DNA of 64,000 nt from Candidatus Algichlamydia australiensis (GTDB lineage Bacteria; Chlamydiota; Chlamydiia; Chlamydiales; JAJFMI01). The notes under the pieces were generated by a model. That model had not been told where the DNA came from. It saw nothing but the letters and a program-made list of their open reading frames with translations, and did no database searches. How positions within the stretch are numbered: position 1 is the first letter of the stretch; each line of letters starts with the position of its first letter. The position numbers and the translations under genes were made by a program. Location: contig JAXCHI010000004.1 in NCBI GenBank assembly GCA_033977065.1, forward strand, positions 92,724 through 156,723. The letters are read 5' to 3'. Positions 25,789 to 27,654 of the stretch are shown here, piece by piece.

Positions 25789-27035
25789 TTTATCGCCTCA
25801 CTTTTCCAATAAAGACAGGGGTGTAGAGCATCGCTACTACTATGACAAGCAAAAGCAATGCGCCTCTCTTTGATTGCAGTATTCCACTCCACTCCCTTTT
25901 TTACAGAGAAAATGTAGGCAGATTTAGAAAAATTATTATTAAAAGGGGCGGTTTCAAGGCGGAGAAGTTCAATTCCACTTAGAGCAAACTGACAAATAAT
26001 AGGTAGGCGTGAATAAGCAGCAAGTTTAATACCTTCAATGTCTGACTTAATAAGGGTGTTTTTTGGTGGTTGTAGTATGAGATAGATTTCTGTAGCGTCT
26101 TTTAGAGTGGAAGGTAATTCCTCTGAAAGGAAGCAATCTTCCTTCTTTTCGAATTCGATCTGGTGCATTTTTTCTGTTGAGGTGGTATTGTAATTACAGA
26201 TATTGTTAATCAATTTTGAAAATATGCAGTCTAATTTGTTGTGATCGTAGAGAGTGATATCTGGGGGTGTACGATCTGCATGGATTAGGGAGAGTGTGTC
26301 AAGAAGTTGGCAGAGATGTTCATAAAAAAAATAGGGATGAAAAAGAGTTTTCTCTTCAACATTTTGGAGATAGCGCTCTACTTTTGTAACTTCTTTTAGG
26401 CAGATGCGCGTATCAATTGTACGTGTATCATATTTAAATTCCTCTTTTAGACCTTCAAGATAAGATTTAACTTGATCTCTGTAAGATTTGAAAAAAGGAG
26501 TTTCTACTACAGAAAGTGATGGCGGAATGTACTCTCCTAATTTCCAAAACCCTTCAGCATTACTTTCTAGCTCTGCAATTTTAAGAGAGCTTTTTAAAGA
26601 GAGGTCAGAATCTGTTGATAATTTGAGTTGATACATGGAGAAAAGAATTTTTTCACTACCTTCTTCTGCTTCTATTTCGTCCTCATGTTCAGATTGGGAT
26701 TTTAATAGATAGAGGTAGAGGGATACTGTTTTGTTCCGCACTTTTGGAAGAGAGTAGTGGGGAACTGTGGCGTTACTGGGAACATTAATAATTTCTCCAT
26801 TTGGAAAGATAGCATGCATCTTCTCAATATTAATTATTCCTCTTTGGAGTTTTGCATTATCCCATTTTAGACTCTCAATTCCATAACAGGGAAGTCCTAG
26901 CATGGCAGTATAGCGGCGCGTATGAGCAAGCAAAGCACGCTCTTGCGCAATCAGATGGGCAGGCAGGAGTGCCTGCCCAGTTTTCCAAGAGACATGCTTT
27001 AACTGCTCCCCTTTAAGCAGCAGGTGGTGTTCCAT
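25785..27035 (-). CDS. tssK: T6SS baseplate protein TssK
   Basis: 416 aa with a TssK-type N-terminus (VSWKTGQALLPAHLIAQERAL...YGIESLKWDNAKLQRGIINIEKMHAIFPNGEII). Confidence 0.8.
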   Translation of the reverse strand: MEHHLLLKGEQLKHVSWKTGQALLPAHLIAQERALLAHTRRYTAMLGLPCYGIESLKWDNAKLQRGIINIEKMHAIFPNGEIINVPSNATVPHYSLPKVRNKTVSLYLYLLKSQSEHEDEIEAEEGSEKILFSMYQLKLSTDSDLSLKSSLKIAELESNAEGFWKLGEYIPPSLSVVETPFFKSYRDQVKSYLEGLKEEFKYDTRTIDTRICLKEVTKVERYLQNVEEKTLFHPYFFYEHLCQLLDTLSLIHADRTPPDITLYDHNKLDCIFSKLINNICNYNTTSTEKMHQIEFEKKEDCFLSEELPSTLKDATEIYLILQPPKNTLIKSDIEGIKLAAYSRLPIICQFALSGIELLRLETAPFNNNFSKSAYIFSVKKGVEWNTAIKERRIAFACHSSSDALHPCLYWKSEAIK

Positions 27036-27654
27036 AAGTGAACATTTTTTTGCTGTCTTTATTGTAGTAGTAGGTAATGCCTTGCTCTTTTCCCTCTTTC
27101 CAATCTTCTCCCTGAATGGCGAGTGAAACGATATAACCTGAAACAGAGTACTTTTTTTGTGGTCGAACTTTCTTCAGCGGCTTACCGCCCCAGTCGGCTT
27201 GTGGAACGATTCTTCCTCTAAACTCACCAAAACCTAAGTCGTGTGAAAAGTGCTTTTCATAGGCTCCTTTTCCACTTCCTTCTCCACTACGATACCTCCA
27301 GGATATGTAAGTGCCGCTGATAACGTTTTCATCTTCATCCTCAACTTTTGCCTCAACTTTTGAGAACATGCTATCACTCATAAATAGTTGTATGCGTTTA
27401 GGATCTTCAGAGTCTTTGCTCCATTGAAAGGACAATATTGGACCAATCGTAGGAACTTTTACACTTGTGCTATCAGGTAAAAAAAGTGGGATCATATCCC
27501 CTTTTTTTTCTGTAAAATCCGTTTCATCAATTGTCATTGTTAGCATATGAGCAACGGATGCGGTTGATCCAGATCCAAAGCCCATTGCTGTATCCATTGA
27601 ATAAAGCTCATCAATTGGAACTCTATTGCTATTACTTTCAGTTGCTGTACTCAT
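27013..27654 (-). CDS. hypothetical 213-aa protein in the Hcp (TssD) position; possible divergent tube protein
   Basis: It lies between tssC and tssK in the same operon. I recognise no Hcp sequence motifs. The assignment rests on position and size only. Confidence 0.4.
   Translation of the reverse strand: MSTATESNSNRVPIDELYSMDTAMGFGSGSTASVAHMLTMTIDETDFTEKKGDMIPLFLPDSTSVKVPTIGPILSFQWSKDSEDPKRIQLFMSDSMFSKVEAKVEDEDENVISGTYISWRYRSGEGSGKGAYEKHFSHDLGFGEFRGRIVPQADWGGKPLKKVRPQKKYSVSGYIVSLAIQGEDWKEGKEQGITYYYNKDSKKMFTYGTPPAA

Follow-up and report, generated by a model that had tools for sequence, protein, structure and literature searches.

A conserved protein family in the tube slot of a Francisella-related type VI secretion cluster from a chlamydial symbiont

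In the Francisella pathogenicity island (FPI) type VI secretion system (T6SS), IglC is given as the tube protein in a review (PMC5924787). IglC (PF11550, PDB 2QWU; 211 amino acids, aa) has no sequence similarity to Hcp (PF05638; Hcp1, PDB 1Y12; Yersinia pestis Hcp, PDB 3V4H). Its gene lies between those of the large sheath subunit and of TssK/IglD, in the order iglA-iglB-iglC-iglD. Passages of PMC12955703 still describe this type of system, T6SSii, as unique to Francisella. Here, we analyze a stretch of 64,000 nucleotides (nt; "the window") from Candidatus Algichlamydia australiensis, a chlamydial symbiont whose host is the dinoflagellate Cladocopium (PMC11317633). The window corresponds to positions 92,724 to 156,723 of contig JAXCHI010000004.1 (assembly GCA_033977065.1). 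It contains a T6SS cluster in which the slot equivalent to that of iglC is held by an open reading frame (ORF) named here ORF213.

27013-27654, minus strand: ORF213, 213 aa, ATG start; candidate tube subunit (Hcp/IglC counterpart), member of an undescribed family

We propose ORF213, with a probability of about 0.7, as the subunit of the tube: functionally it would match IglC and Hcp, but it belongs to neither sequence family. The proposal is based on the synteny with iglA-iglB-iglC-iglD, on an FPI-related cluster in which the tube alone is unfilled and on the conservation of the slot family. It is also based on the predicted fold of a homolog, whose structural matches above a probability of 0.4 are all tail-tube-fold proteins, though none with a significant E value, and on the absence of T6SS_HCP from the window and from the part of the published gene table that was searched.

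In the window, the order of the genes is tssB-tssC-X-tssK, X being the ORF213 slot. Around this slot, the following components were identified.

29241-29777, minus strand: tssB, small sheath subunit (TIGR03358, 152 bits; Pfam T6SS_VipA)
27724-29244, minus strand: tssC, large sheath subunit (TIGR03355, 468 bits, cut-off 271.5; Pfam VipB and VipB_2)
25785-27035, minus strand: tssK, IglD counterpart (TIGR03353, 280.7 bits; Pfam T6SS_VasE)
25420-25788, minus strand: tssE, gp25-like (Pfam GPW_gp25, 39.9 bits, above cut-off; TIGR03357, 35 bits, below cut-off)
23447-25423, minus strand: PdpA-like hub with a fused spike-like C-terminal part (VgrG role), 658 aa (ortholog profile matching PdpA)
22505-23443, minus strand: IglI-family protein (NF041244, 200.9 bits, cut-off 100; weak ImpA_N, the TssA N-terminal domain)
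20872-22500, minus strand: tssF, IglH type (NF041246, the IglH "exception" model, 90 bits, cut-off 75; Pfam T6SS_TssF, 98 bits)
20298-20912, minus strand: DotU/tssL (Pfam DotU, 54 bits; best eggNOG match in Fangia hongkongensis, Thiotrichales)
10017-13451, plus strand: TssM/PdpB-like membrane-complex protein, 1144 aa (weak IcmF_helical; eggNOG COG3523 IcmF in Table S8 of PMC11317633)
13448-13864, plus strand: IglE-like lipoprotein, TssJ role (Pfam IglE_N, 48.6 bits, cut-off 26; NF041245, 59 bits, below the cut-off of 75)
15511-15840, plus strand: DUF4280 PAAR-like protein, IglG counterpart (PF14107, 33.5 bits, cut-off 26.3)
33007-33843, plus strand: probable tssG/IglJ (NF041243, E 2e-4, 20.9 bits, below cut-off)

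Each of the sheath, baseplate, hub/spike, tip and membrane-complex roles thus has a candidate, some of them weakly matched, and the tube is the only role left unfilled. The 658-aa hub protein encoded after tssE has no Pfam match; a profile built from eight orthologs matches Francisella PdpA (6u9e_A) with an expectation value (E) of 2.2e-5. Components typical of T6SSii are found above their cut-offs (IglI family, IglH-type TssF, IglE_N and DUF4280) or by profile (PdpA). For IglJ, and for the IglE equivalog model as a whole, the scores stay below the cut-off. The ORF equivalent to the probable tssG/IglJ in an Archangium locus (L007) shows a weak T6SS_TssG match. The sheath is not of the divergent IglA/IglB type, as TssB and TssC score well above the cut-offs of the canonical models TIGR03358 and TIGR03355. 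Judged from these matches, the cluster is a relative of the FPI T6SS. Because of its canonical sheath and recognizable gp25-like TssE, we regard it as related or intermediate to T6SSii rather than as a plain member.

ORF213 is not an isolated protein. An exhaustive HMMER search of 1.84 billion representatives identified two full-length homologs of 209-210 aa with ca 25% identity, P0002 (phmmer E 1.2e-10) and P0004 (E 5.6e-5); a word-seeded search returned ORF213 itself only. Both contigs are short. In one of them the homolog is followed by TssK; in the other it is preceded by the C-terminus of TssC. A third match, P0003, was discarded as a repetitive 764-aa protein aligned over a 34-residue stretch only. 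Loci anchored on TssC in metagenome-assembled genomes (MAGs) of Parachlamydia, of Simkaniaceae and of two Myxococcota each carry an ORF of 184-192 aa in the same slot. Alignment of the ORF213 group with this second group using hhalign gave a probability of 95.3% (E 2.1e-8, 173 columns). A profile search then brought the family to 26 members, all unannotated and devoid of Pfam domains, with lengths tightly held between 185 and 213 aa. A TssC-anchored scan of metagenomes added one more Parachlamydia-like locus with an agreeing order, as well as a duplicate of a Myxococcota locus already found (L006).

The loci taken in belong to Chlamydiota (the window, L001-L004 and L011) and to Myxococcota (L005-L010). 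In all 11 distinct loci examined, the slot gene directly follows tssC. It is followed by tssK in 10 of them, the contig of the remaining one (L002) ending before that point. The order tssB-tssC-X-tssK-tssE-hub-(spike piece)-tssF-dotU-small-tssM is found in Archangium lipolyticum, in a Nannocystaceae MAG and in two metagenome assemblies. Members of the family conserve a D-P motif, a C-terminal W-G and, within their first third, one tryptophan. Full-length homology and a fixed position therefore go together across two phyla. No second tube candidate was found in any locus examined, and PF05638 is absent from the precomputed Pfam listings of L007-L010, the four loci that have such listings.

The sequence-only reading had noted that the 213-aa protein carries no Hcp motifs and that nothing Hcp-like occurs at the locus, and scans with Pfam, NCBIfam and T6SS_HCP bear this out. 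ORF213 has no Pfam match, no NCBIfam match above noise and no sequence match in the PDB. None of the 26 family members matches anything relevant in Pfam, NCBIfam or PHROGs, nor T6SS_HCP at E <= 1. T6SS_HCP (PF05638) also finds no match among the cluster ORFs or among suitably sized ORFs in the rest of the window. PDB sequence searches with ORF213 alone and with the 7- and 26-sequence profiles returned chance matches only, including neither Hcp nor 2QWU. For direct comparisons, the IglC and Hcp1 sequences were verified against 2QWU and 1Y12. PF11550, present in the profile library, scores 487 bits on IglC itself and is matched by none of the 26 members. The best local alignment with IglC places FIDSLTIAGEKLDK opposite FITALK..ELTAD at equivalent positions, over 23 columns only. 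At the sequence level, ORF213 is a member of neither the Hcp nor the IglC family.

The earlier reading had also named a canonical hcp gene elsewhere in the genome as an observation that would speak against it. In the rows of Table S8 up to locus tag EFCAOE_06140, roughly three quarters of the genes as judged from locus-tag numbering, there is no hcp gene. In these rows, the TssB description is the one place with the word "hcp", and "type VI" occurs nowhere outside this cluster.

A further proposal of that reading was to compare the predicted structure of ORF213 with Hcp, IglC and phage tube proteins. The outcome is mixed: a homolog resembles the tube fold including Hcp, at E values short of significance, IglC is not retrieved and the model of ORF213 itself gives no coherent tube signal. 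The AlphaFold2 model of ORF213, calculated from a 26-sequence alignment, has a mean predicted local distance difference test score (pLDDT) of 73.3 and a predicted template modelling score (pTM) of 0.75. It shows thirteen strands and one helix (residues 94-106), with both termini disordered. Foldseek gives it a weak match to a T4-like baseplate hub subunit. The model of the Archangium homolog P0023 is better defined (pLDDT 86.5, pTM 0.84) and consists of strands, a central helix (82-92) and more strands. In the PDB, all the Foldseek matches of P0023 with a probability above 0.4 are tail-tube-fold proteins of contractile or long-tail injection machines. The most probable match is Y. pestis Hcp (3v4h_B; probability 0.85, template modelling score 0.51 normalised on the target, E 0.084), confirmed as Hcp1 family. 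The others are T5/DT57C baseplate-hub chains, a JBD30 baseplate chain and Francisella PdpA. A second Hcp ranks lower, as do one phage tail chain and one pyocin baseplate chain; the rest are antibody fragments with probabilities of at most 0.06. The phage, hub and baseplate chains are presumably the proteins named here, as taken from chain length and entry title.

The family therefore has a predicted beta-rich fold with one central helix. This order of strands, helix and strands is shared with Hcp, the most probable PDB match of P0023, and the role expected of ORF213 would be the same. In contrast to Hcp, the ORF213 family is 25-50 residues longer and has no match to Pfam or other hidden Markov models in its 26 members. 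With IglC, ORF213 shares its slot between the genes of the large sheath subunit and of TssK/IglD, its length (213 aa against 211 aa) and the absence of sequence similarity to Hcp. It also shares a cluster with IglI, IglE, IglH, IglG-like and PdpA-like proteins and, in the models, extra N-terminal residues before the barrel, as in IglC (PMC5924787). What sets the two apart is that no sequence relation is detectable between IglC and the ORF213 family, and that the ORF213 cluster keeps a sheath matching canonical T6SSi models together with a recognizable TssE. The beta-barrel theme of the best matches of P0023 extends to hub, baseplate and tail tube proteins of phages and contractile injection systems (T5 pb3-type hub, siphophage distal tail, pyocin tube or initiator, gp27-like PdpA). 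These are hubs, adaptors or tubes of other injection systems.

The prominence of hub and baseplate proteins in this list (T5-type hub, PdpA, JBD30, pyocin), equal to that of Hcp, leads to another explanation. ORF213 might be a structural accessory with a tube-like fold, such as a tube initiator, a hub-tube adaptor, a cap or a chaperone, the tube itself being supplied by an unlinked hcp-like gene. Myxobacteria commonly have a separate canonical T6SS, and about a quarter of the gene table of the symbiont lies outside the hcp search. We nevertheless consider this unlikely. The loci examined offer no second tube candidate, the genomes of chlamydiae are small and no Hcp occurs in the searched portion of the annotation. 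Moreover, the hub role is already taken by the PdpA-like protein, and we know of no separate tube initiator in canonical T6SSs. A more specific variant, ORF213 as a gp27-like hub in the role that PdpA has in Francisella, was rejected because the 658-aa neighbor is itself the PdpA homolog.

Several observations weigh against ORF213 as the tube subunit. At the sequence level, hhalign comparisons of the slot family are not significant, either with Hcp1 (E 0.18) or with IglC (E 0.09-0.49, the best value of ca 0.09 being that of the 23-column alignment). In the subgroup of the window, the C-terminal W-G is replaced by Y-G, C-G or C-D, so that the tryptophan is lost. At the structural level, Foldseek searches of the PDB and BFVD with the ORF213 model gave nothing significant and no coherent tube signal. 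No match of P0023 reaches E <= 0.001, the best values being 0.028-0.084, and IglC (2QWU) is absent among the 50 matches listed for either model. An unlinked hcp gene is possible among the last 459 rows of Table S8, which lie outside the search. Finally, the chlamydial slot proteins are unusually divergent for a tube protein.

This divergence was compared with that of the other core proteins. Between the chlamydial loci (window, L003 and L004), the slot proteins show 22-29% local identity, often over part of their length. The corresponding values are 66-70% for TssC, 43-48% for TssK and 24-34% for TssE. By this measure, no other core gene of the chlamydial loci evolves nearly as fast as the slot gene. 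The Myxococcota, for which one pair was compared (L005 and L007), give 53% for the slot protein, 57% for TssB, 45% for TssK and 47% for TssE. From these figures, the constraint on the slot family in Myxococcota is that of a core part, whereas in chlamydiae the family evolves fast.

The fast divergence in chlamydiae is the main reason for keeping alive an accessory or an effector function. ORF213 could be expressed alongside the sheath without being part of the machine, as a secreted cargo or effector or as the chaperone of an effector. Divergence well beyond that of TssC and TssK is what a host-exposed protein might show, and the protein belongs to no recognizable family. However, one fixed position in every locus of two phyla is rare for effectors, the size is held to 185-213 aa and, in the Myxococcota pair, the rate of change is close to that of TssB, TssK and TssE (53% against 45-57% identity). 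The system would also be left without a tube. We therefore view an effector function as very unlikely. For a tube subunit, the chlamydial divergence is compatible with a relaxation of packing constraints or with selection acting on a protein that is delivered to a eukaryotic host.

If ORF213 is the tube subunit, it would, by analogy with Hcp and IglC, be expressed from the tssB-tssC-ORF213-tssK operon. It would form rings that stack into a tube on the PdpA-like hub, within the TssBC sheath. Contraction of the sheath would then drive the ORF213 tube into the eukaryotic host, along with the spike and the PAAR-like tip; the subunit would thus be a secreted protein.

The placement of ORF213 given by the sequence-only reading, 69 nt past tssC and overlapping tssK by 23 nt, agrees with the coordinates and with the TIGR03355 and TIGR03353 matches; the strand, which it did not give, is minus. 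Its interpretation of the position as the Hcp slot, with IglC as a parallel, is strengthened by the FPI-related cluster, by the iglABCD order and by the conservation of the slot in 11 loci. In NCBI, ORF213 is identical to SNF33_06095 of the Ca. Algichlamydia australiensis MAG, annotated as a hypothetical protein. In Table S8 it is EFCAOE_06125, again a "hypothetical protein", without eggNOG assignment. Two elements precede the gene.

27661-27665, minus strand: Shine-Dalgarno-like GGAGG, 6 nt upstream of the ORF213 ATG, read from the sequence
27691-27709, minus strand: 8-bp GC-rich hairpin CCCUCUAA-AAA-UUGGAGGG in the 69-nt tssC-ORF213 spacer, without a U-run after it

Over the 91-nt stretch around the hairpin as a whole, the fold z-score is only -1.85, so the significance of the hairpin is uncertain. 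It could affect the relative expression of the downstream gene or the stability of the mRNA. A terminator or a promoter in this spacer was rejected, as no site resembling either was called there.

The first six residues, MSTATE, are common to TssC (29227-29244, minus strand) and ORF213 (27637-27654, minus strand). This identity had been noticed before with 15 of 18 nucleotides matching; the count is in fact 16 of 18, both mismatches being synonymous third positions. In the six-frame translation of the window, STATE occurs at those two places only. The match is nominally improbable, with a chance of ca 1e-6 for the tssC/ORF213 pair and ca 0.005 ORF pairs expected to have residues 2-6 in common (3321 pairs). 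A small duplication of the translation-initiation region, the origin suggested earlier besides chance, or a conversion of that region could account for the identity. Such an origin is nonetheless unlikely, because the likeness begins exactly at the ATG and ends after codon 6: no similarity is seen upstream of the ATG, where the ribosome-site regions are unrelated, or past codon 6. In addition, Ser/Thr-rich starts occur independently in both families (MSTDTS in the ORF213 homolog P0004; MTKTET, MTEGTT and MSDPQT in TssC homologs), which raises the background chance well above the naive figure. The coincidence is real, unexplained and probably not a duplicated initiation region. It could stem from chance helped by Ser/Thr-rich N-termini, from selection on the starts of two abundant proteins or from an old micro-conversion.

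Type III secretion is what chlamydiae are known for, and a search of the literature at hand found no account of a T6SS of their own. The main text of the genome paper (PMC11317633) makes no mention of a type VI system, the genes appearing in its supplementary table only. In this obligate intracellular chlamydia, a complete FPI-related T6SS cluster (10017-33843) stands beside the usual type III genes. In Table S8, the best eggNOG matches of the neighboring T6SS genes are in Myxococcales and Desulfonatronospira, and that of DotU is in Fangia. The nearest relatives of Francisella DotU are those of Stigmatella, Desulfonatronospira and Haliangium (Bröms et al. 2012, PMC3326028). The guanine-plus-cytosine content of the cluster region (8001-32000) is 36-40%, against 42-47% on either side, and an AbiEi/AbiEii toxin-antitoxin pair (7032-8685, plus strand) flanks the cluster. 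Taken together, the toxin-antitoxin pair, the low guanine-plus-cytosine content and the best matches in Myxococcota and Desulfobacterota suggest horizontal acquisition of the cluster.

A wider proposal, which we advance tentatively and at somewhat less than even odds, is that the slot family is a third T6SS tube sequence family beside Hcp and IglC. It would mark an unnamed lineage bridging T6SSi and the supposedly Francisella-only T6SSii, widespread in Myxococcota and passed horizontally to chlamydial symbionts, where the host-injected tube would evolve unusually fast. ORF213 would be its founding member in Chlamydiota. A cluster combining PdpA, IglE, IglI, IglG-like and IglH parts with a canonical sheath shows the relation of T6SSii to the mainstream, and offers culturable myxobacterial models for poorly understood Francisella parts. 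For an obligate intracellular symbiont whose dinoflagellate host is coral-associated, a complete contractile T6SS would provide a second way into the cytosol of the host. Such systems would be counted as incomplete by annotation pipelines with an Hcp requirement, which recognition of the slot family as the tube would correct.

The organization of the hub differs between lineages. It is one protein in the window (658 aa) and in the Simkaniaceae locus L004 (676 aa). Most Myxococcota loci divide it between a protein of ca 550 aa and one of ca 200 aa, the latter with weak beta-helix-type Pfam matches. The spike part thus looks fused to the hub in some lineages and split from it in others.

9833-11524 and 11531-12130 of L005: split hub and spike pieces
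12245-13900 and 13944-14546 of L007: split hub and spike pieces

In both the chlamydial and the Archangium clusters, a gene for an AMP-binding, acyl-CoA-ligase-like protein directly precedes that of the DUF4280 PAAR-like protein. This pairing is conserved and its role in T6SS is unexplained.

13861-15507 and 15511-15840 of the window, plus strand: AMP-binding and DUF4280 pair
3704-5383 and 5423-5809 of L007: AMP-binding and DUF4280 pair

Directly downstream of the PAAR-like gene, a 1341-aa ankyrin-repeat protein (15879-19904, plus strand) shows weak matches to Legionella Ank effectors. By its position, it is a candidate T6SS cargo toward the eukaryotic host. Divergent from tssB, a 461-aa protein (29883-31268, plus strand) has a Gly/Ala-rich hydrophobic C-terminal region and no Pfam family; its match to BTH_I2691, a family of T6SS effectors, is faint (E 0.008) and scores far below the cut-off. 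Between tssB and the IglJ-like gene also lies a 560-aa protein (31335-33017, plus strand) that has a coiled coil at its N-terminus as well as an autotransporter beta-domain (PF03797, 61.8 bits).

The cluster contains no ClpV. A ClpB gene (1752-4328, minus strand; Table S8) is located ca 6 kb away. A passage of PMC5481754 describes recycling of the sheath with ClpB in Francisella; as ClpB is a housekeeping gene, its proximity to the cluster may mean nothing. On the other side, 4-10 kb beyond the T6SS cluster, type III secretion genes (37685-43439 and 39285-40148, both minus strand) include one for a CesT-family chaperone. A leucine-rich-repeat protein sits among them. From their translations, ORFs of 709 aa and 360 aa read like SctV and SctU, and one of 384 aa reads like CopN.

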